This document shows, in pieces, positions 9,001-53,275 of a stretch of 64,000 nt of DNA; position 1 is the first letter of the stretch, and each line of letters starts with the position of its first letter. Position numbers and translations under genes: made by a program. The notes under the pieces were generated by a model. It did not search any database, was not told the DNA's origin, and saw nothing but the letters and a program-made list of their open reading frames with translations. The DNA is from an uncultured Gammaproteobacteria bacterium. GTDB taxonomy: Bacteria; Patescibacteriota; Microgenomatia; Levybacterales; GWA1-39-11. The stretch is taken from contig CAZHDZ010000002.1 of the NCBI GenBank assembly GCA_964531275.1, positions 58,180-122,179 on the forward strand, read 5' to 3'.

Positions 9001-12000
9001 AATTGTTTTGGTTGAGAATCTTGATACTGATCAAGCAATCGCAAATGGTATCAGAATTCAAAGTGCCGCAGGTGGTATTACAAATGCACTTGACCTTTCA
9101 GATCCTGAGATTGTAAATGCACTCTCATTAGGGGCAAATAATATAACTGCAACCAACTTCTCAGTAACAGGAAGCAACGGAAATCTATCAACTAATGGCA
9201 CAATAACTGCTGCAGGTAATATCAATGCAAATAGCGGAACCATTAATACTACCCAGACAACAGGTAACATATTCAATAGCGTTGCAACGCTTAACGCAGG
9301 AACTTCGGCAACAACTTATACAATTGGTGGGACAACGGCAACAGGAAATCTCAGAGGCACAACAATCAACTTCCCTAACGCAACGGTTATAGACGGAAGC
9401 CTTGCAACTGCAGGCTTTGATGTTGTAAATGTTGGTGGCGGATACGCAGGTGGCACAGGATCAACTCTTGCAACAAATGGCGATGTAAGTCTAAATGGAG
9501 CACTAACTGTTGATGGTATCTCAACTCTAACAGGAAATGTAACAGCAACTGGGGATGTAGCAATCAACGGTGGAGACCTCACTTCAACAGCTACAACCTT
9601 CAATTTGTTAGCCAGCCCTACTACTATTAACTTTGGAGCTGGAGCAACAACCGGAATAAATATAGGTAATGCTGCCGGACTCGTCACATTGGCGAATGAT
9701 GTAACTATCAATGGGGACGCACTTGACGCTCTTTCGGCTCTTGCTCGTGTTGACTCATTGCAAGTCGGTGGTGGATATGGAACAACTGGCGTAACAATTA
9801 CAAATGCGGGTACCATCCAAGCAAATGGTAATCTAACCGTTGATGGTACATCTCAATTAACTGGAAATGTAACAGCAACAGGGGATGTTGCTGTCAATGG
9901 AGGAGATCTCACAACTACTGCTTCTTCATTCAATTTGCTTGCATCTCCAACAACTCTAACTATTGGAGCTGCTGCAAGCACTCTTACATTAGGTGTAAAT
10001 AGTGGAACTGCAACCATCAATAACACTACTCTTTCACTTCCAAACGCAAGCACAATAAATGCAACAGGAGCAACAGCAAATCTAAGTGTTGTAAATGTTG
10101 GTGGTGGATACTCTGGAGGATCTGGCTCGACCCTTTACACTAATGGTGACGCAAGCATTAACGGGATCCTAACTGTTGATGGTGCATCAACACTAACTGG
10201 TGACGTAACAGCAACAGGAGACTTGGCTGTCAATGGCGGAGATCTTACAACAACTGCCGGAACATTTAATCTACTTGCTTCTCCAACAGTTCTTAATATC
10301 GGAGCTGGAGCAACGACTCTTAATTTAGGAGCAACTACAGGAACAACAACGGTTAGGAATAATTTGAAAGTAAGCCTTGTTGATAACTCACCAGATGCGC
10401 TAGATATTGAACAGAATGGCGACAATTACATAAATGTCGACACAACAGATGGAAGTGAAGCAATTGCATTCGGATCAACGGCAGTTGCGCCTACATATAC
10501 ATTCTTAGGATCCGGTCTTACCACAATGGGTGGAAATCTTAACGTTAACGGTGGAACTCTTGCTTCCTCTCAAGCTACAGTTAATCTATTCAATGCAGCC
10601 CCTACGACAACTGTGAATGCATTTGGAAATGCTTCCGCAATTACAATTGGCGCAAATAACAGCGGAACACTAACTGTTCGAAACGATGTAGTAACTTTTG
10701 CCTCAGCAGATACTTTTAATGCAACGAGTGCTACAGCAAATATCAACATTCTCAATGTTGGTGGAGGATACGGAACAACTGGTGCAACAATTGCAACAAC
10801 CGGAGACATATCAACTAATGGAACACTTACTGTTGATGGCATTTCAACTTTGACAGGAGATGTAACGGCAACTGGGGATGTAGCAATTAATGGAGGAGAT
10901 CTCACAACAACTGCTTCATCATTTAACTTGCTCGCAAGCCCAACTACTATTAATTTTGGAGCTGCCGCAAGCACTCTTAACATCGGAGCTATTACAGGTA
11001 CAACAACTATCAGGAATTGGTTGACCGTTAACGGAGCTTCTACATTCAACGGAAATGTAATTGTTGCTGATAATAGGAGCTTTGATGCATCAGGTGCTGC
11101 AACCTTTACTCCATCAGGAAGCAACGACATCACATTTGCTGTAGATGATGCGAGTGGATCGTTCATAAATATTACTGGACTTGATACAACAGCTGGCACT
11201 ACTCTTTGTCTTGATGGATCAAATAATTTAGTTCTTTGTGCAGGCGCAACTCTTTCTCTTCAAAATGCATATGCAGGTGGAAATACAATATCAACAACTG
11301 GAGATGATATAGAGTTCATATTAAATGGATCAGATAATTTCACTGTTACAACTACAGCTGGTGCAACGGGTGGAAGTGTCTTTGCACTTGCGGATGGATC
11401 CAACGCAACTCCACCTACTCAATTAGTTCTTGTAGAAAATCAAGATACAAATGAAACGTTGACCTCCGGTATAGCAGTAAGTTCTGCCGGAGGTGCTATA
11501 ACTAGTGGTATTGATTTGACAGATACAGATATTGTTGACGCTATCGCAATCGGAGCAAACAACATTAATGGCTCCATCTTTGATGTAGATGGTGCAACTG
11601 GAAATATAACTGCAGGAGACATTGCTGTAAATGGTGCTGACATTACAACAACATCAACCGGTACTGCAAATGTATTCAACACTAATGCTACAACCCTAAA
11701 TCTTGGAGGAGTTACGACAACCTACACTCTTGGAGGAACAGCAGCAACAGGAAATATTCAGGGAACAACTGTTAATTTCCCACAGGCAACTGTTCTTTCA
11801 GCAACAGGTGCAACAGCGAATATCAATATTCTTAACGTCGGTGGCGGATACGGAACAACTGGCGCAACAATTGCAACTAACGGAAATATCTCAACAAACG
11901 GAACCCTAACTGTTGACGGAATTTCTACTCTAACTGGAAATGTAACAGCAACAGGAGACCTGGCTGTCAATGGTGGAGACCTGACAACAACTGCCGCCTC

Positions 12001-15000
12001 ATTTGCTCTTCTTGATACAACTGCAACGCAAATCGACTTTGCAGGAGCAGCTGCGCTTTTGACAATAGGAGCAGGTACCGGCACTACAACGCTAGATAAT
12101 AATTTGACAGTTAATTTAGTTGATGCAAATGCAGATGCTTTGGATATTCAGGAAGGAACAAGAAATTACATTAATGTAAATACTTCTAATGGTTCAGAAA
12201 ATATTTCATTCGGAAATGCTACAACCAATCCTTCCTACTCTTTCCTAGGATCAGGTACCACTACCTTTACTGGCCCAGCAACAGCAAATGGCGCTTTGAA
12301 TGCAAATGGTGTTTCAACATTTAACCCTACAACTAGTGGAGACGTTAACTTTGTGATGGACGAAGCAGCTGGTTCATACATTAACATAGTTGGGTTGGAT
12401 ACTGTGAGCGGAGACCCTCTTTGTCTTGATGGATCAGAGAACTTAGTTCTTTGCGCCGGAGCTTCTCTTTCTTTGCAAAATGCATATAACGGTGGAAATA
12501 CTATCTCAACAACTGGTAGCAGTATTGCCTTTACCCTTAATTCGGCAGACAATTTCTCAGTCACAACTGCAGCAGGCGCAACCGGGTATAGTGTATTCGC
12601 TCTTGCCGACGGATCTAATGCAACACCACCTACACAGCTTGTATTAGTTGAGAACCAAGATACAAATCAAGCAATTACAAACGGAATTAGAGTTATCTCC
12701 TCCGGAGGCGCTATAACAAACGGTATTGACCTTTCTGATACAGACATCGTGAATGCTCTTAATTTAGGGGCAAATGATATTACTGCTTCAAGCTTCTCAA
12801 TAACTGGATCCTCAGGAAATATTACAACTGCAGGAGATTTGGCTGTAAATGGTGCTGATATTACAACTACATCAACTGGTACAGCATATGTATTTGACAC
12901 TAATGCTACAGCACTAAATATTGGTGGAGCCGCTGGTGCGATTTCAATTGGTAATTCTACAAGCACAACTACAGTTAATGATGACTTAACAGTAACCGGA
13001 AATGCATTTGACGCACTTGCAGCTCTTGCTCGTGTTGACTCATTGCAAGTCGGTGGTGGATATGGAACTTCCGGCGTAACAATTACAAATGCAGGTACCA
13101 TCCAGGCAAACGGTAATCTAACTGTTGATGGTACATCTCAATTAACTGGAAATGTAACAGCAACTGGGGATGTTGCTGTCAATGGAGGAGATCTCACAAC
13201 TACTGCTTCTTCATTCAATTTGCTTGCATCTCCAACAACTCTAACTATTGGAGCTGCTGCAAGCACTCTTACATTAGGTGTAAATAGTGGAACTGCAACC
13301 ATCAATAACACTACTCTTTCACTTCCAAACGCAAGCACAATAAATGCAACAGGAGCAACAGCAAATCTAAGTGTTGTAAATGTTGGTGGTGGATACTCTG
13401 GAGGTAGCGGTTCAACTCTTGCAACAAATGGCGATGTAAGTCTAAACGGAGCTCTAACAGTTGATGGCATCTCAACATTAACAGGAGATGTTAGTGCAAT
13501 CGGAGATATTGATATAGACGGTGGAGATATTACAACGACCCAGACATCATTTAATTTACTCAACGCGAATGCAACAACTGTAAATTTTGCCGGCGATGCA
13601 ACAACTCTAAATATTGGTGATGGTGCTGGAGTTACAACATTAAATAACAATCTAAGGGCTAACTTGAGATCAAACACAGCAGATGCACTAGATATACAGC
13701 AAGGTTCTGATAACTACATTAACATCAGCACTCTAACCTCAACTGAGAATATTTCTTTTGGTAATGCAGTTATAAATCCTACCTACTCATTCCTAGGAAC
13801 GGGAGCTACAACATTTAATGGTGACGTTAATATTAATTCCGGCACAATACAGTCAAATCAAGGAACTATAAATGTATTCAACACCACTTCAACAGGAGTT
13901 AATGCTTTTGGAGCTGCAACTACACTGACATTAGGGGCAACCAGTGGTACAGCAACTGTAAGAAATTCAACGCTTTCATTGCCAAATGCTCGAGTTGGAA
14001 TTGGCACTGCCAGCCCATTAACTTCACTTCATGTCGTAAGACCATTAACACTTCCTGTAAATGGAAAAGCAGCTGTTATTGTTGATCAGTTGGAAAATCA
14101 GGATATCTTTACAGCATCTGCATCGGGAACGACAAGATTTACCGTAAGTAATGCTGGAAATGTAGTGGCTAGCGGCGACCTGGCCGTTAACGGAACTGGT
14201 ACTGCTGATATCACATCAACAAATACGCAGGCTTCCTTATTTAATACAACCGTTACCAATCTTTCTATCGGGGGTGCGGCAACCACAGTTTCCCTTGGTG
14301 TAGGTGGTGGAACAACAACAGTTAATAGCGCTCTTACCTCAACAGGGCTCATCACAGCTAATGCAGGAGCAACAATTGCATCAGGCCAGACTCTTCTTGC
14401 TCAGGGTGTTTCAACCTTTACACCTAACTTAACAAATGATGTAACAATCAATACTGACTCTGATTCATCGCTCATAATAACTGGGCTTACAGACGTAACA
14501 GGTTCAATATTGTGCGTATCTTCAAATGTTGTTGGTACGTGCGATGCGACATCGCAAAGCCTACAAGCTGCATATGACAACGGAAATACTATTGATACTA
14601 ATGACTCAAGCGACATTGCATTTACGCTTATGAACACTGCAGCTGATTCTAACTTTACAGTGACAACAGAACAGGGAGGTTCTGGCTATACACACCTTGC
14701 ATTAGAAGATGGAACAAATAATGTTGCACCTCCAGCACAATTGCTACGAATTGAAAATCAAGATACTGATGACATACTGGCTGCTGGCATAAAAGTTGAG
14801 TCAGAAGCAGGATTAATTGCCACCGGTATTGACCTTTCAGACACTGAAATAAATGACGCTATCAGTATTGGCGCTAATGACATTGAAGGAACTAATTTCG
14901 ACGTCGACGGTTCAAACGGAAATATAGTAACAGCAGGAACACTTGCTGTTAATGGGGGAACAATTTCCACAACTCAAACAGCAGGGACAATATTTAGTAC

Positions 15001-18000
15001 GCCAACAAATGTTTCGCTTGGTGCAGCTGCGACAACATTTACGTTAGGTGCAAATAATGCCGGCACATTCAATGTAAGAAATGATACGGTTACTTTCTCA
15101 GCAGCTGATACATTTAATGCAACAAGTGCTACAGCAAATGTTAATGTTCTAACTACGGGCGGTGGCTACGGATCAACTGGTACAACAATCGGTGCAACGG
15201 GAGATATCCAAACAAAAGGCGCTCTTACAGTTGACGGTATTTCAACCCTAACGGGAAATGTAACAGCAACTGGGGATGTTGCAGTTAATGGTGGAGACCT
15301 TACAACAACTGCATCTACATTTAACTTGCTTGCTTCACCAACTACGGTTAATCTCGGAGCGGGAACAACAACAGCTCTTAATCTTGGTAATGCTTCTGGT
15401 ACAACAAATGTGCTAGGTAATCTGACAATCGCTTCAGGCAAGACATTACTTGCTCAAGGTGCTTCTACATTTACACCATCAGGAACAAATGACGTAACTA
15501 TCAATACCAATCCAGGTGGCACAGCTTACTTTATTATTAACAACCTAGCAGGCGTTACAGGATCTGCACTTTGTACCGAAACATCTACAAATATTGTTGG
15601 GACATGTAATGCTTCATCACAGAGCCTGCAGGCTGCCTATGACAATGGAAATACAATCGCAACAACGAATTCTCGTGATATAGCATTCACTCTCACAAAC
15701 GACACAACTGACTCAAAGTTTTCGGTTACTACAGCTACAGGCTCGACTGCTGGGGTTGAATTCCTAAGAGCAGATGGTGCAGGTACTGCTGACCCAACGC
15801 AGCAAGTTCTTATTCAGAATCTTGACTCAAATCGAGCTCTTCCGGTTGGCCTTAAGGTTGCTGGTGTAACCGGCGGGGACGTTACTGTTGCAGTTGATCT
15901 TTCTGATTCAAATATTGTCTCTGCCCTTTCTCTTGGAGCAAATGACATAATTGCAACAAACTTCGGAATTACAGGATCAAATGGAAATATAACAACAAGT
16001 GGAGCTGTTGCTATCAATAGCGGTAATCTTACTACTACAAATACATCAGCAAATGTATTCGATACAAATGCAACAGGAGTAAATGCTTTTGGTGCTGCAA
16101 CCACCTTAAATATCGGAGCAGGTTCAGGCACAGCAACAATAAACAACGCAACTATTTCTTTCCCAACGGCATCTGCAATCAATGCAGCCGGAGCTGCTCT
16201 TGCTGTAGATTCAATCGCAGTTGGAGGAGGATACGGCGGAAGCGGTATAGATCTGACTGCTGCAGGAGATATTTCAGCCGACGGTGCTCTAACTATTGAC
16301 GGCACCTCCCAGTTGACCGGAAGTGTAACGACTGGTGGAGACTTGGCAGTAAATGGTGCAGGTACGGCTGATATAACAACGACAAATACCGGAACAGCTA
16401 CCTTATTTAATACAACTGCAACAACGGTAAATATTGCTGGTGGTGCGACAAGTGCTGTAAATGTAGGAAATGCATCCGGCACAGTTAATATAAATGGCAA
16501 CCTGGTGATGGGTTCTAGCAGAAGCATCACGTCAACTGGTCCTGTAAGCTTTACTCCAAACAGTACAAACTCAGTAACTATAACTGGGGACACGGATTCC
16601 TTCCTTACTCTTGTTGGAGTACAACCAGCAAGCGGTTCAACTCCAATACTTTGTTTGGACGGCTCTAGTCACGTAGTAACCTGTGACAACACAGCTATAC
16701 TTTCGCTTCAATCCGCATATGGGTATGGTAATACAATTGATACGACTTCGGCACGGGACATCGAATTCAATCTAACTACGGCAGGAACTGATTCAAGTTT
16801 TGCTATCACAACAGAGGCTGGTGCTACAGGATTTACCAATATCTCACTAGAAGACGGGACAAATACCGCTCCTCCAGCACAATTAGTGCTTATAAATAAT
16901 GAAGACTCAAATGAGGCTTTGCCTGCTGGACTTGTTATCAGCTCCACAGGCGGAGGAGCTGTTACGACTGCACTTGATGTATCTGATCCAGCGATTTTGA
17001 CTGCAATTTCGCTAGGTGGAAACGATATTACAGGTTCAGTATTTGATGTTGACGGAGCAACCGGAGATACAACAGTTGGAGACATTGCTGTTAATGGAAA
17101 CGACATAACAACAACCCAAGTAGCTGCTGCAAATATCTTTAATACAAATGCCAATGCGATAAATCTTGGAGGCGTTGCAGCAACGTATACAATTGGAGCA
17201 ACTACAGCTACAGGTAATCTTCGAGGAACAACTATAAACTTCCCTAACGCAACATCAATTGTTGCAAATGGTGCAACAGCTAACATATCAGCTCTTGAAG
17301 TTGGCGGAGGATATTCAGGTGCATCAGGAGTAAGTCTTTCAACAACCGGAGACATTCAGGCCAATGGAGCCCTTACTATTGATGGGATCTCAACTTTGAC
17401 AGGTAATGTAACAGCAACAGGAGACGTTGCAATCAATGGTGGAGATCTTACAACTACTGCAACTACGTTTAATTTGCTTGCAAGTCCAGCAACGGTTAAC
17501 TTTGCTGCAGGCGCTTCTACAGCAGTAAATGTTGGACATGCTTCAGGTACAACAAATATCCTGGGTAACTTGTCTATTGCATCAACTAAATCATTCACAT
17601 CCCAAGGAGCTGCAACATTTACACCAACCGGAACAACTGACGTCACGATAAATACCGATTCTGATTCTTCGTTGATTTTGGTTGGAATGAATGATGTAAC
17701 AGGTGCTGCAATTTGTATTGAAAATTCAACAAATGTTATAGGAACTTGCGATGCTGCATCTCAAAGTCTTCAAACAGCATATGATAATGGCAATACTATC
17801 CTGACAACCGATGCACGAAATCTGGATTTCACATTGGATGCAACCTCAACAGATCCTAATTTCTTAATAAAAACAGCAGCAGGCGGACAAGGAAATACTC
17901 AATTTTCACTTGAGGATGGCTCAAATGCTACTTCCCCAACAGAGCTGGTCTTAATTAGAAACAATGACAGTAATGAGGCGCTGACTTCAGGACTTAGAAT

Positions 18001-21000
18001 GACTTCTGCAGGAGGAGCTATTACAACGGCTCTTGATGTGAGTGCATCTCAAATTGGTACAGCATTAAGCTTCGGTGGTAACGACATCTCTGGGACGGCA
18101 TTCTCTGTAACGGGTAGCAATGGAAATATAACCTCCTCAGGGGATATTGCTATTAATGGTAATGACATAACGACAACAACAGCTGCAGGTGCAAATATTT
18201 TCAATACGAATGCAACATCTGTAAATATTGGAGGCGCAGCAACGGCTTACTCAATCGGTGGATCAAGTGCAACAGGACATCTAAGAGGAACATCTGTAAT
18301 ATTTGATGACGCGACGACAATCGATGCAACACTAGCAACGATAAATGGTTCAATCCTTACTTCCGGAGGCGGCTACACAAATACCGGAGTAACATTGGCT
18401 GCAAATGGAGATGTAAGTGCTGACGGAATTCTTACGGTCGGAGGAGCTGCCTCAATTACAGGAGCTGTTACATTAACAAATGATATCGCTGTTAACGGTG
18501 GAGACCTCACCTCAACAGCCACAACCTTCAATCTACTTGCTTCTCCAACAACTATTAATTTTGGTGCAGGTGCTTCGACTGCAATAAATATAGGAAATAC
18601 AGCAGGCACAACAACAGTTAATAGTAATCTAACAGTTGCTTCTGGTAAGACATTGCTTGCTCAGGGTGTATCAACATTTACCCCTAGCAGCACAAATGAT
18701 GTAACAATCAATACGGATGCTGACTCATCATTTATTGTTACTAGCTTGACAGATGTTACTGGTGATAACGTTTGTGTAGATGGCACTGGAGTTATTGGAA
18801 CCTGTGACTCTGCTTCTTCAAGCTTGCAAGCTGCTTACGATGCTGGTAACAATATTACGACCACAAGTTCTCGTGACATAGAATTTGACCTTTCAACGAC
18901 CGGAACTGATTCAAGTTTTGTAGTGTCTACCCTCGCTGGCGCAACAGGCTCAACGCTCTTTAATCTTGAGGATGGATCAAATGCAACACCACCTCAACAG
19001 TTGGTTCTTATTAATAATGCAGATACAAATGAGCCATTAGCTGCCGGACTTAAGATAACAGCTGCTGCTGGAGGAATTACAACAGGTATTGATGTCAGTG
19101 ACCCAGACGTTGTGATAGGAATAAGTCTTGGTGCGTCAAATATTGATGGAACGAGCTTTGATGTGACTGGGTCTTCCGGAAATATTACATCCTCTGGTGA
19201 CCTTGCACTTCACGGTGGTGATATAACTACAACAAATACTACAGCTACAGTATTTGATACAGCAGCAACAACTGTAAATGCATTCGGTGTCGCTTCAACT
19301 TTAATACTTGGTGCTAACAATAGTGGAACCGCAACTATTAGAAATCAAACTATTAGCTTCCCATCTGCAACTGCTGTTAATGCAACAAGTGCAACCGGCA
19401 ACTTCAGCGCTCTAACAACAGGTGGTGGATATGCTTCTACTGGTACTTCAATCTCAGCAGCTGGTGTAATCCAAACAAAGGGTGCGCTAACAGTCGACGG
19501 TATATCGACGTTGACTGGTGCAGTAACTGCTGAAGCTGGGATAACCATTGATGGTGCAACTCAATCAAATCTAATTGCTGCAAAATCAACTGCCAACCTA
19601 TTTAATACAACGGCAACTACAATTAACTTTGGTGCAGCTGCAACGACAGGTATAAATATTGGAGCTTCAGGTGGAACTATTGCTATCGCAGGTCCAGTAA
19701 CAATAGCAAACGGTCAAACTCTTACCGCGAATGGAGCAGCTACTATTGGAGACGGTGGTGACGCGATTGCTCTTTCCGGAACTACAGTTTCATTAACTGC
19801 AAATGGAGCAGGAAATGATATAACTGCAAATCTGGTTGACGCTAATACAGACGCTCTGGACATTCAACAAGGGACAGATAACTACATTAATATAAATACA
19901 ACTAACGGTTCTGAAAATATCTCATTTGGAAATACCGGGACTAATCCATCATTCTCATTCCTTGGATCTGGTACAACTACCATGGGTGGTAACTTAGCGG
20001 TAAATGGTGGTACCATTTCTACAACGCAAACATCAGGGACAATTTTTGCTTCCCCAACTACCCTCTCTATCGGTACCGCTGCAACTACATTCTCGTTAGG
20101 TGCAGGAAGCGGCACTACTACTATCAATAATGGCCTAACGGTAAGTGGTGCTACGACAAATATCGCATCAACAGCAATCAATCTTACGGGCAATAGCACA
20201 GTTCTTGACATGACAGGGACCGGAACTCTTGGAATCAATACAACAACTGATCGTGCAGTAACTTTTGGAGCAGGAGCATTTACTGTTGAGTCCAACTCTA
20301 TAAATCTTTCAGGAACCGCTCCTGCAATTGCTGCAACGACTAATGCCACAAACTTGACAATAAATGCAGGGACAACTGGCTTGGTGCAGATCGGTGGTAC
20401 ATCAACAGGGAATTTAGAGCTTGGAGGAGGATCGGGATCTACCGGATGTACGCTTACAAATAATACAGGAGACTTCGCTTGTTCTGGAGGTATTACTACA
20501 ACAGACACAACTGGTACGGTTAATTTCGGCTTCTGGACAAAAGACTTTAATACAGGGATCATCTCCCCAGTAACTGGTACTGATGTTCTTGCTATTACTT
20601 CCTCATCAACGACAAATGGAGCGCTATCACTGACAACTTCAGCTCTTCAATCTTCCGGAGTTGCTGGATTCAATAATGCAGTCACAATCACAGGAACTGC
20701 AGGTTCATCTACTTACTATGGACAAAGATTGACACTTACTAATAGCGGCACAACTAACGCAAATACTGCATATGGACAGCACATCTCATTTGTTGGAGCA
20801 GGAAGTTTGGCAAATACCATGACTGGTCTTTATGTTGATGTAACAACAGCAAATGCCAGTGATACAACATATGCTGCAGCATTTATGAACGGAAATGTTG
20901 GTATTGGGGATGCTTCGCCAACTGCCCCTCTTACTGTTGGCTCAGGAGACTTATTCCAAGTAGCAGCAACTGGAAATGTAACGTTTAATTACACTACACC

Positions 21001-24000
21001 AACTGTTACTTTTGGAAATGGTGGAACACTCGCCTTTAGAGACGGAACAAGTGACATTCTAAGACTCCAAGACTGGAATACATCTCAGACATTCCTAAGA
21101 GTTGGCGCACACGGAACAACAAATGGTGCGATCTTCTTTGGCTCATCTGGAGCTGGAACAATGGAGCCTTCAATCTCAGCATCTGCATCCGGTAACCTAT
21201 GGGTACAAGCACCAGGCGGAACAACAATTGTAGGAAGTGGAATTGGAGATATTACCATTAATCCTGGAACGGGAACAAATCAGGTTTACGTAAATCTAAA
21301 TACAGGAGGATCTGGTACAGGAGACTTTAATGTTAGGACAAATGGAACAAGCTTCCTAACGTTATCCGAGGTTGGTGCGTCAACCTTCACACAACCTATC
21401 AACCAAAAAGTAACGGTAAGTGCGCCAGGAACAACCCTTGGTTCAACAACTGGTGTTACAGGCGGAGTATTTGACATAAATGCTGATACGTCTACTGCAA
21501 ATACTGTAGGCATGACCATTGACTTTACAAGCAATGACGGAGGAGCTTCAGGAAGTGATCTTTATGCGCAAAGAATAAATTTAATTCAAAATGATGCTGA
21601 CTCAAATCTTTTTGGATTACATATAGGCCTTGCTGCAACAAGTGCAACTATCGGGGATAGTAAATTGGTAGACTGTCTGCTATGCCTTCAAAATCTAGAA
21701 AATCAGTCAGGCGCTATAGAATCGGCTATAAGAATAAGAGGAACAGCAGCTGCTGGTGCTATAACAAACGGGCTTAATATGAGTGGCGCAACTGATATTA
21801 CAAATGACATTGTTCTTCAAAATGGCGAAGTGATTGATAACAATACGAACGGAACCGTTGCTGTAACAGCTACCTCAACAACATTCTCGGGTGATATAAC
21901 CGTCACAGGTAACGACATAACATTTGGAAATGCCGAAACAATCTCCAACGGGACAAATGGAAGGATTACTGTTGGAGGAGCAGATCTGGCTCTTTCATCA
22001 ACCACTGGTGACATCATTTTTGGAAATGGTGAAACAATAGATAACGACACAAATGGCGTTGTTAACATCAACGGAAGAGTCCAATTTGATGCAACATCTG
22101 ATGACAACGAAAGACTTTGCCATACTGGTGCTGATGGTGCGTCTCTAACCAATATACTTCTCGAAGACTGTACGGTTAGCGGAGAAGACTTTGCAGAGTG
22201 GGCTATAGTTGGAACTCCTACAGCGGAGCCTGGAGATCTTGTATATGTTGTAGGTAATTTACCAAGTGACCCTACCCTGACACTAAAAGATTTGACTACC
22301 ACTCAATATCAAAGCAGTGTTTCTGGAATAATAAGCACAAATCCATTTATAGATATCCTTGGAGACGAACAATACAAGGGCAAGCCAAATGCAAAACCAA
22401 TTGCACTTGCAGGAAGAGTGCCAGTAAAGGTATCAACTGAGAATGGAAATATTAAGGTCGGAGATGCCCTTGTTGCCTCATCAATTCCTGGAGTTGCAAT
22501 GAAGGCTACGCAAAAGGGTATGATAATTGGATTTGCTGAAGAAGATTATGATGGGACCACGAGGGTTAGTGCTCAAGTCCTAAAGCAAGAAGAGGTCTTT
22601 AACTCAGACCTAGATGACAGGACTGAATATCACTCAAACCCTGCTGCTTGGGACTCTTCTGTAGGAAAGATCATGACATCAATAAATTCGTTCTTCTACG
22701 ACCCAAATTATGCGACCGCATACACTGGAAATGAAGATTGGAACCACACGGGTGACTTTACCGTGAGCCAGACATTATTTGCGTACGATGTAGCATTTGG
22801 AATAGGTGGTGAGCTAACAGTAGATGGAGCAGGAAGTCTCTCTACGACAGGCTCAATCACGTCAAGCGCTTTGACATCGCAGACAGCAAATTTTGGAGAT
22901 GCAGCACAATTTGCAATTGACGAGAATGGGAATGCGACCACTTCGGGAAGTTTGACTTTTGATGCTGCAGTACTAAGCTCCGAAACAAACAATTTTGTAA
23001 GCAGGTTAACTCTGGATACAAACGAGAATAATGATCCTACTAAATTTGTCTTTAAAAATGCTGCCGGTCTTGAGCTCTTGGGACTAGATAGCAATGGAAA
23101 TGCAACAATTGCAGGAACCTTGACGACTATGGTTGGCAACTATGATATTGCCGAAGATTATCCAACCCGTGACAACACAATTGAAGCCGGAGATATCGTG
23201 TCAGCAGATAGAGTCCTTGACGGATTTGTCTCAAAGTCAAATACTGCATACGACAAGACAGTTATCGGTATCTATTCTGAGAAGCCAGGATTTAGACTCT
23301 CTCAAGCAGGTGGCACGATAAATGGAGAAAGAGCTATTCCAATTGCCCTTGCCGGTAGAGTTCCTGTTAAGGTTAACAATGAAAATGGACCTATAAAGAA
23401 AGGTGATGCCCTCACTACTTCTTCAACCCCAGGATACGCAATGAAGGCTGTAAAAGCAGGTCAGATAATTGGTAAAGCATTAGAGGACTTCAACGGAACA
23501 ACAGGCAAGGTTCTTACCTTCGTTAACGTGAGCTTTGCTGATCCTCAAAATATACTTGAGAGAATTGCTTTGGATTCTGACAACAATATTGCAATCTCGA
23601 AGGTCAGCTCTGATGCTGTCAAGCTTCCTGCTAACCTAACAATTGCAGGAAAAGAAATAAATGGAACACTAACCGACGCACTTCTTGCAGTAGGAAATGA
23701 GATAACAAATGTAAAGACTGGTATTTCAAGTCTTGAAACTGCTGTTCTTGGTCTTGATACAAAGGCAAACGCCCTTGAGGAAAAGGTTTTGACGCTTGAA
23801 GAGCAACAGGCATCAACTGCAGCAGAACTCGCAAGAACAATCGATGGTACAAATGAGCTTGATTCTAGAGTAAGCTCAACCAGCGCAAGTCTTTCGGATC
23901 TAAATAGTAGACTTGATGCATTACTTTCTCAAATTGCATCAGGTTCAACATCTGCTTCAGGATCTGCAATTGGAACAGGCTCTGCTAGCTACAATGAATT

Positions 24001-24781
24001 GGTTGCAGGATTGACTGAAGCAAATGACTTGATTTCTTCAGGGTCTGCTATTCCTTCTTCAGTTAATGTCACATCAAGTGCACAGCTTGGAGATGAGATC
24101 GAGGCTTACAATCTTACAGTTAAGGATTCATTTACATCGCTTGGTCTTTCATATCTTGGAGGAACATCTATTTCTGGAGACGTTACTGTTGCTGGAACAT
24201 CATATCTATCAGACACAAGCATTGTCGGCGTTGTGACAATTGATGACATAACTCTTACAGAAAGCTCAATTAATGTTAAAGGTGTTGCCGATGAGAATGG
24301 CGTTATCTCTGGCGGAACTCTATTTATCCAGAATTCACCACTTGCAGGAAGCATTGATCTCTTCAATGGAGGTGTAACAATTCAAAAAGATGGAACAATT
24401 TCAGCGAGAGGAAATGTTAAGGTTGAAGGTGACCTAAATGTTGAAGGTGCAATTACAACTACAGCAATTGCTGGAGAGAATATCAAGGCACATGACGCTT
24501 TGTATGTAGCCTCAGACGGAATTGTTAAGAAAGCTGACAGTAGTTTTGCAGACCGTACAAATGTAATTGGAGTAGCTGCAAAAGACGCCAAGAAAGGGGC
24601 CAAAGTTACAGTAATAATTGGTGGAAAGGCAAAGGGCTATCAAGGACTCGATGCAGGAGTGAAATACTACCTCACAACCAGTGGACAAATGACCCCGACT
24701 CTTCCTTTAAGCCAGGAGAATGCAGTCACTATTGGAGTTGCTTTCTCAGAGACTGAGTTGGTGATACAGACGGGAAGATGA
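1..24781 (+). CDS. Giant repetitive cell-surface protein (fibrillar adhesin / beta-helix-like), 5'-partial. The frame is open from nt 2 (TQDVTYTLPLDDGSNNYVL... precedes the first Met at 77), so the product is longer than 8,234 aa.
   Basis: One uninterrupted 24.7-kb ORF ending in TGA at 24779-24781. Extreme T/G/N/S/A composition. ~330-370-aa super-repeats alternate a two-Cys module (LC[IV]DGSNxVVKCS...LQSAYDGGNTI...ALANGSNANPAGQVVLVENLDTDEAIASGIRIQ...DLSDPEIVNALSLGAN) with a Gly/Thr beta-strand module (GGGYGSTGTTITNAG...TVDGISTLTG...AVNGG...). The last ~1,500 aa are non-repetitive and carry a duplicated ~60-aa module (IALAGRVPVKV...GDAL...PG.AMKA..G.IIG) plus a coiled-coil stretch. Confidence 0.9.
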   Translation, partial: TQDVTYTLPLDDGSNNYVLTTDGSGLLSWQSASGVGAGTITAVGNVLSGTAFTGSDSLSNKGNTLVFEGSTSVDDANDITLTASNPVSSIIFTLPDLGTNGTFAFLEGLQTFTGAKTFNDITIADTNIPLSGGNTTLDVTGGATRTLTLLNSTGGQVADFDLSDGSLLTAGTSRLTNAGALQNITGYSQSSGNFSQSGSGSFSTGTGAVSLNGATTTSTTLVVGTTLTTGGSASVSGNLTLEGAGRSIQTTENNTLTLGGATTGNIDLNENTYILGSNTFSVGTGLTSLGGAINVTGVATFDNNITQTGSSTFSTGTGNVTLNGNTTVSTGVSLTANGPVALDPDGGNDIVLTTAFGSGSYLQIIGLDTQTGTQLCIDGSNQVVKCSAGSTTLQGAYDGGNTITTANSRDIAINLAGNENLTATTSAGSNGYTSFALANGSNPNPPSQLVLIDNQDTNEALPAGLRIKSAGGGITTAIDLSDSDIVNALSLGANDVTATSFAITGSNGNISTNGTLTALGDINANSGVVATTQTTASLFNSTVTNLSVGNAATTLSLGAGTGTTTVNNALNVTGLSTFNAGATIPSGQTLTANGPVVINPNLGNDITLTTDYVAGSDLYVPGLETPGTAGTALCIETGTDRVTKCSASTFTLQGAYDGGNTILTTGGRDIEFDLASDDNFAITTVAGSVSYSAFALADGSNSAPAGQLILVENQDLNEVLASGIKVQSAAGAITNALDLSDAEIVNAISFGLNNIDGTNFDVTGSNGNVTTAGDIAINGGNLTTTQAAFNIFNTGVATLNIGGDATAISLGDGTSVTTINDDLVVSGGVLDALSALARVDSLQVGGGYGSTGTTITNAGNISTNGTLTVDGISTLTGSITTAGDIAVNGGNVTTTAGTAYLFNSGATTLNIGGAATTLSLGASTGTTTVNNNLTVSGLILANGGITIPAGEELAASGSASFAPDFTNDITFNTDSDSTIILNGIGTGSGNSLCREAGTNNLVECSASSITLQSAYNGGNTISTSGGRDIAFTLSNTNFSATAAAGTNSFSQFALANGSNANPAGQVVLVENLDTDQAIASGIRIQAASGGITNALDLSDPEIVNALSLGANDITATNFSITGSTGAFATSDSITASGDINANSGTIASNQAAGFLFNAGVSNLSIGEDASTISLGDATGTITINNQTLALPNATSITAAGAGLTIGSVTVGGGYGTTGTTLSGNGDIQTNGALTVDGISQLSGNVTTNGDLAVNGGNITSTQTTANLFNATVTTLNIGSAATTVSLGANTGTTTVNNNLAVSDALTVGQLATFNGGATISNGERFLASGSAEFNPSGSNDVSIAVSYSAGSYLHITGLDTQTGTTLCIDGSSNVVRCSAASITLQSAYDGGNTISTTGGRNIAYVLANDDDFTVTTPAGSTGQSIFSLANGGATSPSELILVSNNDVDTTIANGITINSAGGVITDALDLSDSEIVNALNLGANDITSSNFTLTGSNGNISTNGTITATGDITTTGNLAVNGGNITTTSTGTAEVFNSNATALNIGGAAGTISIGNGTSVTTVNDDLVVSGGALDALSALARVDGLQVGGGYGSTGTTITNAGNISTNGTLTVDGISTLTGSITTAGDIAVNGGNVTTTAGTAYLFNSGATTLNIGGAATAITLGATTGTTTVRNNLSVLGSANVTGFSTFNDRTTITNGQQFNASGSANFSPNIDNDVVINTDADSFLTLNGLTTPGIAGDALCVDASNNVTKCSTNSVTLQSAYNGGNTISTSGGRDIAFTLNNTNFSATAAAGTNSFSQFALANGSNANPAGQVVLVENLDTDEAIASGIRIQAASGGITNALDLSDPEIVNALSLGANNVVATNFSIAGSTGSITTAGDIAVNGGNVTTTNTTAALFNTNATTLSIGGAATTLTLGNAAGTTAVAGGLTVGGGYGSTGVTLSSAGVIQANGALTVDGISTLTGSVTTAGDIAVNGGNVTTTAGTAYLFDTNATTLNIGGAATAITLGATTGTTTVRNNLSVLGSANVTGFATFNDRTTVTNGQQFNASGSANFSPNIDNDVVINTDADSFLTLNGLTTPGTAGSTLCVDASNNVTKCSASSITLQSAYNGGNTISTSGGRDIAFTLNNTNFSATAAAGTNSFSQFALANGSNANPAGQVVLVENLDTDEAIASGIRIQAASGGITNALDLSDPEIVNALSLGANNITATNFSITGSNGDVTTNGSVTAAGDINANSGVIATTQTTGTIFNVGVTNLSIGNDATTLSLGDSTGTTTINNNLTVSGTALDALSALARVSSLQVGGGYAGGTGSTLATNGDVSLNGILTVDGTSTLTGDVTAAGDVAVNGGDITTTATTFNLLNATVTTLNIGGATTAYTVGGTAATGNIQGTTINLPQATVLSATSATAGFSVVNVGGGYAGGTGSTLATNGDASINGILTVDGASTLTGNVTATGDLAVNGGDLTTTASSFNLLTSPTTVNFATDATTLSIGDGTGTTTVNNALTITGATTANGNFTANAISTFNLTGGNDLTISTNNGSNSNLIITDLATTTGTTLCITGGNVVVKCAGAAAGLQASYDAGNTILTTGSRDIEFELDQNDNFTVTTIAGTTGHSIFALQDGTNTSPATQLILVENQDTDEAIASGITVTSAGGAITSGIDLSDTDIVDAIAIGANNINGSIFDVDGATGNITAGDIAVNGADITTTSTGTANVFNTNATTLNLGGVTTTYTLGGTAATGNIQGTTVNFPQATVLSATGATANINILNVGGGYGTTGATIATNGNISTNGTLTVDGISTLTGNVTATGDVAINGGDLTTTAGTFNLLASPTVLNIGAAATTLELGAGTGTTTVNNNLQVDGTTTSTGLITANAGATVSNGQTFQALGVSTFNPDSTNDVTFVTDGAGGSDVIFQNLAVQPGDNLCLEDGSDRIVICASSAISLQSAYDGGNTITTTPGLDIAFTLDDSNFSATVAAGTTAFSQFALQDGSNANPAGQIVLVENLDTDQAIANGIRIQSAAGGITNALDLSDPEIVNALSLGANNITATNFSVTGSNGNLSTNGTITAAGNINANSGTINTTQTTGNIFNSVATLNAGTSATTYTIGGTTATGNLRGTTINFPNATVIDGSLATAGFDVVNVGGGYAGGTGSTLATNGDVSLNGALTVDGISTLTGNVTATGDVAINGGDLTSTATTFNLLASPTTINFGAGATTGINIGNAAGLVTLANDVTINGDALDALSALARVDSLQVGGGYGTTGVTITNAGTIQANGNLTVDGTSQLTGNVTATGDVAVNGGDLTTTASSFNLLASPTTLTIGAAASTLTLGVNSGTATINNTTLSLPNASTINATGATANLSVVNVGGGYSGGSGSTLYTNGDASINGILTVDGASTLTGDVTATGDLAVNGGDLTTTAGTFNLLASPTVLNIGAGATTLNLGATTGTTTVRNNLKVSLVDNSPDALDIEQNGDNYINVDTTDGSEAIAFGSTAVAPTYTFLGSGLTTMGGNLNVNGGTLASSQATVNLFNAAPTTTVNAFGNASAITIGANNSGTLTVRNDVVTFASADTFNATSATANINILNVGGGYGTTGATIATTGDISTNGTLTVDGISTLTGDVTATGDVAINGGDLTTTASSFNLLASPTTINFGAAASTLNIGAITGTTTIRNWLTVNGASTFNGNVIVADNRSFDASGAATFTPSGSNDITFAVDDASGSFINITGLDTTAGTTLCLDGSNNLVLCAGATLSLQNAYAGGNTISTTGDDIEFILNGSDNFTVTTTAGATGGSVFALADGSNATPPTQLVLVENQDTNETLTSGIAVSSAGGAITSGIDLTDTDIVDAIAIGANNINGSIFDVDGATGNITAGDIAVNGADITTTSTGTANVFNTNATTLNLGGVTTTYTLGGTAATGNIQGTTVNFPQATVLSATGATANINILNVGGGYGTTGATIATNGNISTNGTLTVDGISTLTGNVTATGDLAVNGGDLTTTAASFALLDTTATQIDFAGAAALLTIGAGTGTTTLDNNLTVNLVDANADALDIQEGTRNYINVNTSNGSENISFGNATTNPSYSFLGSGTTTFTGPATANGALNANGVSTFNPTTSGDVNFVMDEAAGSYINIVGLDTVSGDPLCLDGSENLVLCAGASLSLQNAYNGGNTISTTGSSIAFTLNSADNFSVTTAAGATGYSVFALADGSNATPPTQLVLVENQDTNQAITNGIRVISSGGAITNGIDLSDTDIVNALNLGANDITASSFSITGSSGNITTAGDLAVNGADITTTSTGTAYVFDTNATALNIGGAAGAISIGNSTSTTTVNDDLTVTGNAFDALAALARVDSLQVGGGYGTSGVTITNAGTIQANGNLTVDGTSQLTGNVTATGDVAVNGGDLTTTASSFNLLASPTTLTIGAAASTLTLGVNSGTATINNTTLSLPNASTINATGATANLSVVNVGGGYSGGSGSTLATNGDVSLNGALTVDGISTLTGDVSAIGDIDIDGGDITTTQTSFNLLNANATTVNFAGDATTLNIGDGAGVTTLNNNLRANLRSNTADALDIQQGSDNYINISTLTSTENISFGNAVINPTYSFLGTGATTFNGDVNINSGTIQSNQGTINVFNTTSTGVNAFGAATTLTLGATSGTATVRNSTLSLPNARVGIGTASPLTSLHVVRPLTLPVNGKAAVIVDQLENQDIFTASASGTTRFTVSNAGNVVASGDLAVNGTGTADITSTNTQASLFNTTVTNLSIGGAATTVSLGVGGGTTTVNSALTSTGLITANAGATIASGQTLLAQGVSTFTPNLTNDVTINTDSDSSLIITGLTDVTGSILCVSSNVVGTCDATSQSLQAAYDNGNTIDTNDSSDIAFTLMNTAADSNFTVTTEQGGSGYTHLALEDGTNNVAPPAQLLRIENQDTDDILAAGIKVESEAGLIATGIDLSDTEINDAISIGANDIEGTNFDVDGSNGNIVTAGTLAVNGGTISTTQTAGTIFSTPTNVSLGAAATTFTLGANNAGTFNVRNDTVTFSAADTFNATSATANVNVLTTGGGYGSTGTTIGATGDIQTKGALTVDGISTLTGNVTATGDVAVNGGDLTTTASTFNLLASPTTVNLGAGTTTALNLGNASGTTNVLGNLTIASGKTLLAQGASTFTPSGTNDVTINTNPGGTAYFIINNLAGVTGSALCTETSTNIVGTCNASSQSLQAAYDNGNTIATTNSRDIAFTLTNDTTDSKFSVTTATGSTAGVEFLRADGAGTADPTQQVLIQNLDSNRALPVGLKVAGVTGGDVTVAVDLSDSNIVSALSLGANDIIATNFGITGSNGNITTSGAVAINSGNLTTTNTSANVFDTNATGVNAFGAATTLNIGAGSGTATINNATISFPTASAINAAGAALAVDSIAVGGGYGGSGIDLTAAGDISADGALTIDGTSQLTGSVTTGGDLAVNGAGTADITTTNTGTATLFNTTATTVNIAGGATSAVNVGNASGTVNINGNLVMGSSRSITSTGPVSFTPNSTNSVTITGDTDSFLTLVGVQPASGSTPILCLDGSSHVVTCDNTAILSLQSAYGYGNTIDTTSARDIEFNLTTAGTDSSFAITTEAGATGFTNISLEDGTNTAPPAQLVLINNEDSNEALPAGLVISSTGGGAVTTALDVSDPAILTAISLGGNDITGSVFDVDGATGDTTVGDIAVNGNDITTTQVAAANIFNTNANAINLGGVAATYTIGATTATGNLRGTTINFPNATSIVANGATANISALEVGGGYSGASGVSLSTTGDIQANGALTIDGISTLTGNVTATGDVAINGGDLTTTATTFNLLASPATVNFAAGASTAVNVGHASGTTNILGNLSIASTKSFTSQGAATFTPTGTTDVTINTDSDSSLILVGMNDVTGAAICIENSTNVIGTCDAASQSLQTAYDNGNTILTTDARNLDFTLDATSTDPNFLIKTAAGGQGNTQFSLEDGSNATSPTELVLIRNNDSNEALTSGLRMTSAGGAITTALDVSASQIGTALSFGGNDISGTAFSVTGSNGNITSSGDIAINGNDITTTTAAGANIFNTNATSVNIGGAATAYSIGGSSATGHLRGTSVIFDDATTIDATLATINGSILTSGGGYTNTGVTLAANGDVSADGILTVGGAASITGAVTLTNDIAVNGGDLTSTATTFNLLASPTTINFGAGASTAINIGNTAGTTTVNSNLTVASGKTLLAQGVSTFTPSSTNDVTINTDADSSFIVTSLTDVTGDNVCVDGTGVIGTCDSASSSLQAAYDAGNNITTTSSRDIEFDLSTTGTDSSFVVSTLAGATGSTLFNLEDGSNATPPQQLVLINNADTNEPLAAGLKITAAAGGITTGIDVSDPDVVIGISLGASNIDGTSFDVTGSSGNITSSGDLALHGGDITTTNTTATVFDTAATTVNAFGVASTLILGANNSGTATIRNQTISFPSATAVNATSATGNFSALTTGGGYASTGTSISAAGVIQTKGALTVDGISTLTGAVTAEAGITIDGATQSNLIAAKSTANLFNTTATTINFGAAATTGINIGASGGTIAIAGPVTIANGQTLTANGAATIGDGGDAIALSGTTVSLTANGAGNDITANLVDANTDALDIQQGTDNYININTTNGSENISFGNTGTNPSFSFLGSGTTTMGGNLAVNGGTISTTQTSGTIFASPTTLSIGTAATTFSLGAGSGTTTINNGLTVSGATTNIASTAINLTGNSTVLDMTGTGTLGINTTTDRAVTFGAGAFTVESNSINLSGTAPAIAATTNATNLTINAGTTGLVQIGGTSTGNLELGGGSGSTGCTLTNNTGDFACSGGITTTDTTGTVNFGFWTKDFNTGIISPVTGTDVLAITSSSTTNGALSLTTSALQSSGVAGFNNAVTITGTAGSSTYYGQRLTLTNSGTTNANTAYGQHISFVGAGSLANTMTGLYVDVTTANASDTTYAAAFMNGNVGIGDASPTAPLTVGSGDLFQVAATGNVTFNYTTPTVTFGNGGTLAFRDGTSDILRLQDWNTSQTFLRVGAHGTTNGAIFFGSSGAGTMEPSISASASGNLWVQAPGGTTIVGSGIGDITINPGTGTNQVYVNLNTGGSGTGDFNVRTNGTSFLTLSEVGASTFTQPINQKVTVSAPGTTLGSTTGVTGGVFDINADTSTANTVGMTIDFTSNDGGASGSDLYAQRINLIQNDADSNLFGLHIGLAATSATIGDSKLVDCLLCLQNLENQSGAIESAIRIRGTAAAGAITNGLNMSGATDITNDIVLQNGEVIDNNTNGTVAVTATSTTFSGDITVTGNDITFGNAETISNGTNGRITVGGADLALSSTTGDIIFGNGETIDNDTNGVVNINGRVQFDATSDDNERLCHTGADGASLTNILLEDCTVSGEDFAEWAIVGTPTAEPGDLVYVVGNLPSDPTLTLKDLTTTQYQSSVSGIISTNPFIDILGDEQYKGKPNAKPIALAGRVPVKVSTENGNIKVGDALVASSIPGVAMKATQKGMIIGFAEEDYDGTTRVSAQVLKQEEVFNSDLDDRTEYHSNPAAWDSSVGKIMTSINSFFYDPNYATAYTGNEDWNHTGDFTVSQTLFAYDVAFGIGGELTVDGAGSLSTTGSITSSALTSQTANFGDAAQFAIDENGNATTSGSLTFDAAVLSSETNNFVSRLTLDTNENNDPTKFVFKNAAGLELLGLDSNGNATIAGTLTTMVGNYDIAEDYPTRDNTIEAGDIVSADRVLDGFVSKSNTAYDKTVIGIYSEKPGFRLSQAGGTINGERAIPIALAGRVPVKVNNENGPIKKGDALTTSSTPGYAMKAVKAGQIIGKALEDFNGTTGKVLTFVNVSFADPQNILERIALDSDNNIAISKVSSDAVKLPANLTIAGKEINGTLTDALLAVGNEITNVKTGISSLETAVLGLDTKANALEEKVLTLEEQQASTAAELARTIDGTNELDSRVSSTSASLSDLNSRLDALLSQIASGSTSASGSAIGTGSASYNELVAGLTEANDLISSGSAIPSSVNVTSSAQLGDEIEAYNLTVKDSFTSLGLSYLGGTSISGDVTVAGTSYLSDTSIVGVVTIDDITLTESSINVKGVADENGVISGGTLFIQNSPLAGSIDLFNGGVTIQKDGTISARGNVKVEGDLNVEGAITTTAIAGENIKAHDALYVASDGIVKKADSSFADRTNVIGVAAKDAKKGAKVTVIIGGKAKGYQGLDAGVKYYLTTSGQMTPTLPLSQENAVTIGVAFSETELVIQTGR

Positions 24782-25970: not shown

Positions 25971-26175
25971 GCCTATATTTCAATTTTACGTCTAGTATGT
26001 AAGAACGCAATATGCCAGTTGCGTTCCTTACATCAAACCAGTCTAAGCGAGATAGCTACCTTACAGTTCTGCTGAGATACGTATTACGAGTATAAAGAAA
26101 TTGTTGGTCAAGATTTTCGACACTTGCTGTTTTTGCTCTTGTTTTTCCCAAATGAGATTTTGTAGTCGTAAAGCG

Positions 26176-28797: not shown

Positions 28798-28902
28798 TAC
28801 CTAAAACTTATCATATGTCTATTTTTTGTCAATGTATCATTATTTTTCTATTAATTCTTGCACTATATATAGGTATGCTATACTGAATGTAACCTCAAAT
28901 TT

Positions 28903-32040: not shown

Positions 32041-32525
32041 TTCTCCCAGTTATTCTTGCTCTCTACCCTCTTGGTTAAATAGTATGGTTTTTCTTTTTAC
32101 CGCCTCCTCCATTCTTGTTGTAAGGGGCATTTACTCAAGTAATTCCGCCGTCAGGTTTGTAATACGAGAATGTTTTCGGTTGTAACCATAGCTTGTTTAT
32201 CATTGAAGTTTCTCGCTTATGTCCCACTTAAGGTTCATCCTTAATGAACTTAAACTAGATTAACCTAAGGATCGACCTTTGATAGCCTCAGTTAAGCTCT
32301 GTCCTTCGTCAGTCTCAGCGAATGTTTAAGCTTAAAGTAATCACAATAGAAAATAAGTCAAAGCCGGGGATTTAGTGAAATAAATAGACCTTAATGTTTA
32401 GAACAAGGAGTATCTTTGTTGAGAAGGTATTAAGCTAAATATGAAGTGAAAGTATTTCTATCAAGTTTAATTAAAAAACTAAACTACAATTAATCATGAA
32501 TCAGTTGATCAATTTATCAGAAGTC

Positions 32526-53091: not shown

Positions 53092-53181
53092 TGCCGTTTC
53101 TGCCTAAATCGACACCGATATTATACCACCTAAGTTCAAATTTATCAATTCAAATCATGAAATGCAAGTAACAGAATAGTA

Positions 53182-53275
53182 AGAAATTATATCTATTCTG
53201 TTGACGCAAGCTTCGCTTACGTTAAGAAATTATATCTATTCTGTTGACGCAAGCTTCGCTTACGTTAAGAAATTC
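53182..53275. repeat. 43-bp tandem direct repeat (2.2 copies).
   Basis: Unit AGAAATTATATCTATTCTGTTGACGCAAGCTTCGCTTACGTTA recurs at 53182 and 53225 with a partial third copy. Each unit carries a TATAAT on the minus strand and the 14-nt motif GCAAGCTTCGCTTA. Confidence 0.85.

Follow-up and report, generated by a model that had tools for sequence, protein, structure and literature searches.

The subject of this study is a giant open reading frame (ORF) at the start of a 64,000-nucleotide stretch of contig CAZHDZ010000002.1 (GenBank assembly GCA_964531275.1, positions 58,180 to 122,179 of the forward strand), referred to below as the window. The ORF (77..24781, forward strand) is open since the window's first codon and ends with a stop codon at 24779-24781. 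It spans 8,234 amino acids (aa) when counted from the TTG at nucleotide (nt) 77, which is the origin of all residue numbers given here. No stop lies upstream of nt 77 in this frame, which leaves the window through its 5' edge, so that the protein is longer than 8,234 aa. Its composition is rich in Thr, Gly, Ala, Asn and Ser, and upstream of the C-terminal region it has no significant Pfam match. We found that its last ~900 residues contain two copies of a module, here called A and B, that share homology in sequence profile and in fold with the C-terminal auto-chaperones of two phage proteins, phi29 gp12 and Dpo31. The copies are followed by a coiled coil and by a terminal domain of the capsid-cement type.

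A preliminary description, made from the sequence alone, had marked the region from nt 22380 to the end of the ORF as unlike the rest of the protein and had taken it for the likeliest host- or ligand-binding tip of a fiber. The three features named there, two copies of a module, a third one and a coiled coil, are all present and go beyond what chance would give. The region does differ from the rest, but the internal repeats of the protein already stop near aa 6800 (nt ~20470), well 5' of that start. Between the last internal repeat and module A lies a non-repetitive stretch of ~570 aa rich in Thr, Gly, Asn and Ser (window ~20470-22048, aa ~6800-7324), which has no Pfam match.

A duplicated module related to phage auto-chaperones

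When the 900 aa were compared with themselves by BLAST, only the identity match was returned, and the duplication appeared once segments were compared separately: the two regions are 45% identical over 130 aa (BLASTP, E 7e-25). The two copies announced in the preliminary description are thus real, but not the size and limits given to them (~55-60 aa), as the true repeat unit measures ~130-175 aa. The ~55-aa stretch that was quoted (PIALAGRVPVKV...) covers only the latter of the module's two beta-barrel halves, and a start at nt 22380 cuts copy A in half, since the envelope of this copy begins at nt 22049. The two halves of the module are weakly alike (hhalign, E 1.8e-4), with the common motif I-x-x-G-D-x-[VL]...G...K...[IV]-I-G. 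We defined the conserved domain on homologues of copy B (alignment A1) and used the hidden Markov model (HMM) of this alignment for the envelopes; the homologue look-ups gave 30, 7 and 42 matches, mostly fragments. The consensus of A1 reads G-A-D-[LIVFY]-A-E-x-[YF] ... E-P-G-D-V-V ... P-I-A-L-A-G-R-V-P-V-K-V in its first part and E-N-G-x-I-x-x-G-D-L-L-T-T-S-S-T-P-G-Y-A-M-K ... I-I-G-K-A-L-E in its second, and in the homologues the domain comes after glycine-rich, fiber-like segments.

Queried with the entire 900-aa region, Pfam, PHROGs, NCBIfam and the PDB sequences yielded weak coiled-coil noise only; the module signal emerged only through the family profile or single-domain queries. Run against all PDB sequences, the A1 profile matched the phi29 pre-neck appendage protein gp12 (6qz9_A, E 2.2e-4), and the D-x-A-E motif of the module aligned on the gp12 autocleavage site, S691/D692-F-A-E695. 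The same profile matched Dpo31, the tailspike of a marine phage (E 0.032), with D664-Y-A-E aligned (D664/E667). Mature gp12* ends at residue 691 (PMC6542822), and the crystal entry of "pre-mature" gp12, 3suc, differs at exactly E695 (Q). In Dpo31, Asp664 is the first residue of the released auto-chaperone domain. Thus, in two independent experimental systems, the released chaperone begins with the Asp of the motif. The C-terminal domain of gp12 is an auto-chaperone that is removed by cleavage after the trimer has folded (PMC3357383), and the documented job of the domain in gp12 and Dpo31 is to trimerize the chain and then be cut off (PMC3357383, PMC6542822, PMC13317679).

Both window modules keep the D-x-A-E motif, as D7371/E7374 in module A and D7690/E7693 in module B. 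The sequence reads LEDCTVSGE before the putative cut and DFAEWAIVGTPTAEPGDLVYVVGNLPSDPTLTLK after it in A, and LTTMVGNY and DIAEDYPTR, respectively, in B. Among 150 relatives with two or three modules plus the window protein, the Asp is present in 149 of 151 first copies and 145 of 151 last copies, and the Glu in 150 and 148. On its own, module A has no Pfam match, and module B comes just below the threshold of the capsid-cement family PF23982 (E 8e-6); both match near the C-terminal end of phrog_6427 in PHROGs (E 1.3e-8 for module A).

Structure prediction (AlphaFold; all models are monomers) gave a model of module B with a predicted local distance difference test (pLDDT) score of 89.9, which has the fold of the gp12 C-terminal domain. 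With this model, Foldseek retrieved 3suc (E 7.9e-4, TMq 0.59) and the gp12 C-fragment 3gqh (E 1.8e-3), and also trimeric beta-tulip capsid decoration and cement proteins. The link between the gp12 C-domain and the beta-tulip decoration-protein fold has already been published (PMC7602432, Table 2). Among predicted viral structures (BFVD), module B found matches with TMq 0.74-0.77, a root-mean-square deviation of ~2 Å and 27-39% identity, some of the targets being annotated as "preneck appendage protein" or "tail fiber protein". The kinship with phage fibers and trimer formers suspected in the preliminary description is borne out: all relatives found are C-terminal domains of phage tail spikes or tail fibers, or trimeric capsid decoration proteins.

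The module belongs to a very large family. An exhaustive profile search returned 31,961 clusters (50% identity representatives) at E<=1e-3, 10,906 of them at E<=1e-30, and both Patescibacteria and IMG/VR viral contigs carry the module, with 219 relatives in the latter. The 150 top-scoring proteins (485-5,766 aa) contain two modules in 136 cases and three in 14, in a list that is biased towards multi-copy proteins because scores add up. Their modules are mostly 50-170 aa apart (a few up to ~700 aa), and most of these proteins have a 200-480-aa tail after the last module. Viral and cellular architectures differ. In 80 IMG/VR viral loci, no ORF has more than one module, and this one closes a long reading frame (up to >1,789 aa), with 2-11 residues (mostly 3) left before the stop. 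In 80 cellular loci, by contrast, more than 100 aa follow the module in 73 of 81 ORFs, and it is terminal in only 7; these loci come from Levyibacteriota, Saccharibacteria, Parcubacteria, other Patescibacteria, metagenome-assembled genomes (MAGs) labeled Gammaproteobacteria, Elusimicrobia, Myxococcota and Nanoarchaeia. In the window protein, 729 aa follow module A and 390 aa follow module B, so that neither stands at the extreme C terminus. A cultured-phage collection gave only four matches, all to hypothetical proteins, three of them in jumbo phages. No description of tandem modules of this type in giant cellular proteins was found in the searchable literature. Xiang et al. reportedly suggested in 2009 that bacterial adhesins perhaps mature like gp12.

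One two-module representative (alignment A5) also has a Peptidase_S74 domain (E 2e-17), and thus both kinds of intramolecular chaperone in one protein; seven representatives in that alignment have LVIVD repeats and two have Bact_surface_Ig-like domains. At three loci, one in an Elusimicrobia MAG (L078) and two on viral contigs (L133, L140), two ORFs on the same strand each end in a terminal module. The two are adjacent in L078 and ~770-2,080 nt apart in L133 and L140, like arrays of paralogous fiber genes. A complete protein of only 192 aa (P0003; L001 8001-8579, GCA_900089805.1, FLOH01000010.1) has an N-terminal hydrophobic segment, a short fiber-like stretch and a terminal module; it sits in a same-strand run of ORFs without Pfam matches, which are ~430-440 aa and ~690-711 aa long. 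The nearest homologues of the window modules come from MAGs labeled "uncultured Gammaproteobacteria" (86%) and Levyibacteriota (71%), labels that conflict.

The segment between modules A and B (Table 1) shares its last ~100 aa with three relatives (P0147, P0116, P0032), and a gap of 50-170 aa is typical of the family. Upstream of the motif in module A lies a conserved cysteine pair, C7348/C7365, that possibly forms a disulfide loop. A pair within 45 aa upstream of the motif occurs in 81 of 151 first copies versus 6 of 151 last copies of the two-module relatives. It recalls the "cysteine annulus" of the P22 tailspike, to which a part in auto-chaperone function has been ascribed (PMC3357383).

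The tail after module B

Module B is followed, in this order, by a conserved FVNVSFADP segment, a coiled coil, a disordered Ser/Gly linker, a beta-rich stalk and the terminal domain (Table 1). The heptad-like coiled coil, put at ~100 aa in the preliminary description, is real and measures 90 aa. Its a and d positions are 85% and 77% hydrophobic, respectively, versus 25% elsewhere, with a periodicity of 3.5 residues in the heptad analysis, and it has weak matches to coiled-coil families.

Scanned alone, the terminal domain passes the threshold of PF09956 (Phage_cement_2, formerly DUF2190) with 25.9 bits against a cut-off of 24 (E 1.3e-5), a match that was missed when the whole 900 aa were scanned; PF11133 (Phage_head_fibr) matches weakly (E 2.6e-3). 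The tail homologues P0193, P0194 and P0198 have precomputed PF09956 annotations, and a further candidate, P0187, considered as a stand-alone tail gene, was set aside as a contig-edge or frameshift fragment. In PHROGs, the domain matches phrog_4368 (3.7e-13), phrog_122 (head decoration) and phrog_14753 (head fiber). Its model has the beta-tulip decoration-protein fold: Foldseek retrieved 8qsy (1.7e-5) and 6qyy (3.9e-5), and also 8saj, 5wk1_K, 8hdt_G and 1td0, the structure matches being to HFTV1, the phi29 gp8.5 N-base (24% identity), Adjutor, TW1, Pam3, lambda gpD and SHP. Binding to a capsid lattice is not indicated for this domain in the window, where the context is cellular and phage structural genes are absent.

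The preliminary description had read the extreme C terminus as a degenerate third copy of the module. It is instead a distant third relative of the module fold, in a different Pfam family (Phage_cement_2) and without the D-x-A-E motif. BLAST between this domain and the modules gives weak matches (E 0.002-0.004, in a tiny search space), the profile of the terminal domain aligns to the first half of the module in a profile-profile comparison (E 1.3e-5, probability 81%), and the models of the two retrieve the same PDB structures.

Table 1. Coordinates of the features recognized in the C-terminal region of the giant protein
Feature	Window position (nt)	Residues	Strand	Observations
Module A	22049-22591	7325-7505	+	Divergent G2-type intramolecular-chaperone / beta-tulip domain with neck; HMM envelope, 144.6 bits, E 2.6e-44
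Cysteine pair	22118-22171	C7348...C7365	+	Just 5' of the module A D-x-A-E; pattern ERLCH...x16...DC
Putative autocleavage site, module A	22187-22198	E7370/D7371-F-A-E7374	+	Flanks CTVSGE-DFAEW
Inter-module segment	22592-23083	7506-7669	+	Second half T/G/N/S-rich, fiber-like, runs into module B
Module B	23084-23608	7670-7844	+	G2-type intramolecular-chaperone / beta-tulip domain; HMM envelope, 213 bits
Putative autocleavage site, module B	23144-23155	Y7689/D7690-I-A-E7693	+	Flanks TMVGNY-DIAEDY
Coiled coil	23669-23938	7865-7954	+	90 aa; single predicted helix, pLDDT ~90 (AlphaFold); 13 uninterrupted heptads
Flexible linker	23939-24052	7955-7992	+	Ser/Gly/Ala/Thr-rich; pLDDT <50 at tail residues 145-157 and 165-178
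Beta-rich stalk	24053-24418	7993-8114	+	Short strands, pLDDT 50-80; conserved among tail homologues (columns in alignments A2 and A3)
Terminal beta-tulip domain	24419-24778	8115-8234	+	Phage_cement_2 / head-fiber-base type; without D-x-A-E; pLDDT >93

Proposed assembly and cleavage, and the alternatives

We consider it probable that the C-terminal ~900 residues form a self-cleaving cassette of phage origin that serves trimer assembly and maturation and is carried by a giant cellular fiber. Of the domain identities we are highly confident, and self-cleavage of at least one of the two sites is rather likely. The layout would then be that of a fiber followed by module A, a short stalk, module B, a coiled coil of 13 heptads, a flexible linker, a beta stalk and a beta-tulip cap like that of capsid cement proteins. 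The three C-terminal oligomerization elements would register three chains only once the whole chain of >8,000 residues had been made or exported. With registration from the C-terminal end, folding would start only when the entire chain is available, and the cassette would nucleate the C-to-N folding of a trimeric, beta-structured fiber. Autocatalysis would then break the peptide bonds before D7371 and/or D7690, Glu and Asp being the catalytic residues, as they are in MEROPS family G2. Cleavage would free the cassette as one or two trimeric fragments, and the mature fiber would end near residue 7370. As in characterized phage spikes the binding or enzymatic part precedes the cleavage site, the non-repetitive stretch upstream of module A (aa ~6800-7370) appears the more plausible place for the mature fiber's functional end.

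Several observations weigh against this proposal. PF11962 (Peptidase_G2) has no match in the 900-aa region or in either module alone, even at E<=10. It is matched in 14 of 49 relatives (E<=0.01), one of them above the gathering threshold (P0047, 37.1 bits versus a cut-off of 25), and since relatives match the family while the window modules do not, membership in Peptidase_G2 is transitive and holds at the superfamily level. The profile match to gp12 has a moderate E-value and covers only the first half of the module, and the Foldseek TM-scores that link the module to gp12 are just 0.55-0.6. The window modules are internal, with 320-730 further residues after them, a placement seen in no characterized example and in no viral homologue. 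The core of the coiled coil, with Ile/Val at a and Leu at d, is not in itself a sign of a trimer. A tail of the window type is common to only 5-7 of the 150 representatives; so narrow a sharing is more typical of a specificity determinant, and an elaborate, variable tail produced just for discarding has no explanation. Finally, the conserved Asp and Glu could be structural.

If they were structural, the modules and the cap might stay uncut in the mature fiber as permanent trimerization nodes, an explanation that we regard as unlikely. It would suit the internal position of the modules and the long tails that follow them in most of the cellular ORFs (73 of 81). The same fold is found in capsid cement proteins that do not cleave, one family of which module B almost reaches (PF23982), and the auto-chaperone domain of the P22 tailspike stays in the mature protein (PMC3357383). 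The conservation of the motif counts against such clamps, however. Among proteins that share less than 50% identity, the Asp and Glu are retained at 96-99% in either copy. Their positions are exactly those at which experiments have placed the cuts in gp12 and Dpo31, and the non-cleaving relatives, including the terminal domain of the window protein itself, are without the motif.

The distal tip proposed in the preliminary description, a host- or ligand-binding end with the coiled coil and the small beta domain at the C terminus as its main parts, seems to us quite improbable. The layout of a coiled coil followed by a beta domain is indeed present, family members differ in the tail after module B, a variability frequent in receptor-binding ends, and some beta-tulip head fibers and decoration proteins aid host adhesion (PMC7602432). 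Nevertheless, the documented role of the duplicated module is assembly and cleavage rather than binding, and members of the family to which the terminal domain belongs attach in trimeric form to capsid lattices instead of host receptors. Searches of the 900-aa region against Pfam, PHROGs and NCBIfam revealed no lectin, Ig or carbohydrate-binding family, and if either module cleaves, the tail loses its covalent attachment to the fiber. The preliminary description had itself named a known intramolecular domain of unrelated function as the finding that would speak against a binding tip, and with modules homologous to the gp12/Dpo31 auto-chaperone, which trimerizes the chain and is then cut off, such a domain is what the region contains. 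The variable tail after module B may have a binding or anchoring role.

The opposite topology, in which the terminal cement-like trimer docks the fiber on a regular lattice at the surface (an S-layer or the cell envelope, for example), with the C terminus proximal, also strikes us as improbable. It draws on the match of the terminal domain to the gp8.5 N-base (24% identity, E 3.9e-5) and to Phage_head_fibr and phrog_14753, given that in phi29 gp8.5 the beta-tulip base contacts the capsid and the fiber projects from this base (PMC6542822). On the other hand, no lattice partner was identified, the G2 modules would lie between base and fiber and, if active, would sever the connection, and the N terminus of the protein, needed for the topology, is outside the window.

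The genes near the giant ORF encode a beta-lactamase-like protein, a PKD/CBM96 protein, a Wzy_C/TPR protein, the alpha and beta subunits of PheRS, a class II aminoacyl-tRNA synthetase (aaRS), an M20 peptidase, a threonine dehydratase, a trigger factor and a P-type ATPase. No phage structural genes were seen among the neighbors in the window, and the surroundings of the giant gene showed neither type I secretion nor outer-membrane genes. The 3' neighbors (window 24978-34811), namely the beta-lactamase-like gene and the genes for an 873-aa PKD/CBM96 protein, a 1,045-aa protein without Pfam match and a Wzy_C/TPR membrane protein, have syntenic counterparts on a related metagenome contig (locus L004) that holds the orthologous 3' end of the fiber gene (P0181). 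Three large ORFs have no Pfam match at E<=1e-5 (526, 546 and 1,045 aa; window 45856-49077 and 28903-32040). At window 52414-54221, a DUF5660 protein and an unusually short trigger factor of 294 aa, which has just the N and C domains, together suggest a reduced genome; the CPR label of the preliminary description is plausible. That the gene belongs to a prophage or tailocin-like element rather than encoding a cellular surface fiber is very improbable, and we rejected it in view of its housekeeping neighbors: all recognizable domains do have phage relatives, and IMG/VR contigs yielded 219 relatives, but the flanks hold housekeeping and envelope genes (PheRS alpha and beta, class II aaRS, trigger factor, Wzy_C protein, P-type ATPase) and no visible phage genes, the same gene neighborhood recurs in the related metagenome contig, and cellular homologues differ in architecture from viral ones.

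The assembly-and-cleavage cassette thus remains our preferred reading. It provides the first functional handle on the unannotated C terminus of a giant protein that has no other Pfam match, with precise residues (D7371/E7374 and D7690/E7693), and it shifts the search for the real binding tip upstream of module A. The kinds of domain involved are already known; what appears to be new is the very large, Pfam-invisible branch of the family, the tandem and internal arrangement of the module in giant cellular proteins, and its combination with a coiled coil and a capsid-cement domain. This divergent branch of the gp12 auto-chaperone is very common (~32,000 clusters at 50% identity), is weakly detected by Pfam and goes undetected in the window protein, and a profile built for it would bring annotation to giant proteins now called "hypothetical", in the tens of thousands. 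The split between viral proteins, with a single, terminal module, and cellular proteins, with long tails and often tandem modules, is an evolutionary observation on the reuse of phage fiber-assembly parts in cellular fibers.

A broader reading is conceivable, although we hold it to be doubtful: tandem self-cleaving chaperones of the G2 type might mark a large unannotated class of giant fibers encoded by cells (Patescibacteria/CPR-like and other uncultivated bacteria, and archaea), with a programmed, multi-step cassette that first assembles and then cuts. Two cuts would free distinct trimers, one a short stalk piece and the other consisting of the coiled coil and the cement-like domain, and this second piece would have a function of its own, for example docking to the S-layer or another cell-surface lattice, or capping the fiber. 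If true, this would be a polyprotein-like maturation route for bacterial surface structures, taken from phage tail spikes.

Comparison with known systems

Trimeric autotransporter adhesins (TAA) and other bacterial trimeric fibers resemble the proposed fiber in their length, their coiled-coil segments and the C-terminal nucleation of their folding. The coiled coil of the window protein has a weak match to a TAA fragment (3zmf, E 0.2), as a generic coiled coil only. Unlike TAA, the window protein is without a beta-barrel membrane anchor and without YadA-like domains.

Peptidase_S74, the endosialidase-type chaperone (K1F endoNF, T5 pb1, the ICA domain of MYRF), uses a Ser-Lys dyad; it follows the same logic as the proposed cassette, but its fold and chemistry differ. 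In this type, a C-terminal trimeric chaperone with a helical bundle folds the upstream triple beta-helix and then cuts itself off (PMC4690869, PMC8326128, PMC3357383). Identity of the window modules with Peptidase_S74 (PF13884) was rejected, as the window has no match and only one distant representative of the family carries this domain.

The beta-tulip decoration and cement proteins (lambda gpD, SHP, TW1 gp56, the Pam3 and XM1 cement proteins, and the phi29 gp8.5 N-base; PF09956, PF11133, PF23982) match both the terminal domain and the modules, and all of them form trimers. They are, however, small stand-alone proteins or N-terminal domains that bind capsids, whereas the window domain is the C-terminal end of a giant cellular protein, with no capsid.

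The closest systems are the C-terminal auto-chaperone of phi29 gp12 (residues 692-854; MEROPS G2; PF11962) and domain D4 of Dpo31. In both, the module is single and terminal, whereas the window protein has two copies, both internal, with a coiled coil and one more domain behind them. The protein that carries the modules also differs, being a cellular protein of >8,200 aa rather than a virion spike of ~850 aa, and both cleavage and ATP-dependent release are putative for the window protein. Nevertheless, the window modules share with these two phage domains the alignment of the motif and the fold, and like them they come after a fiber neck rich in Thr, Gly, Asn and Ser.

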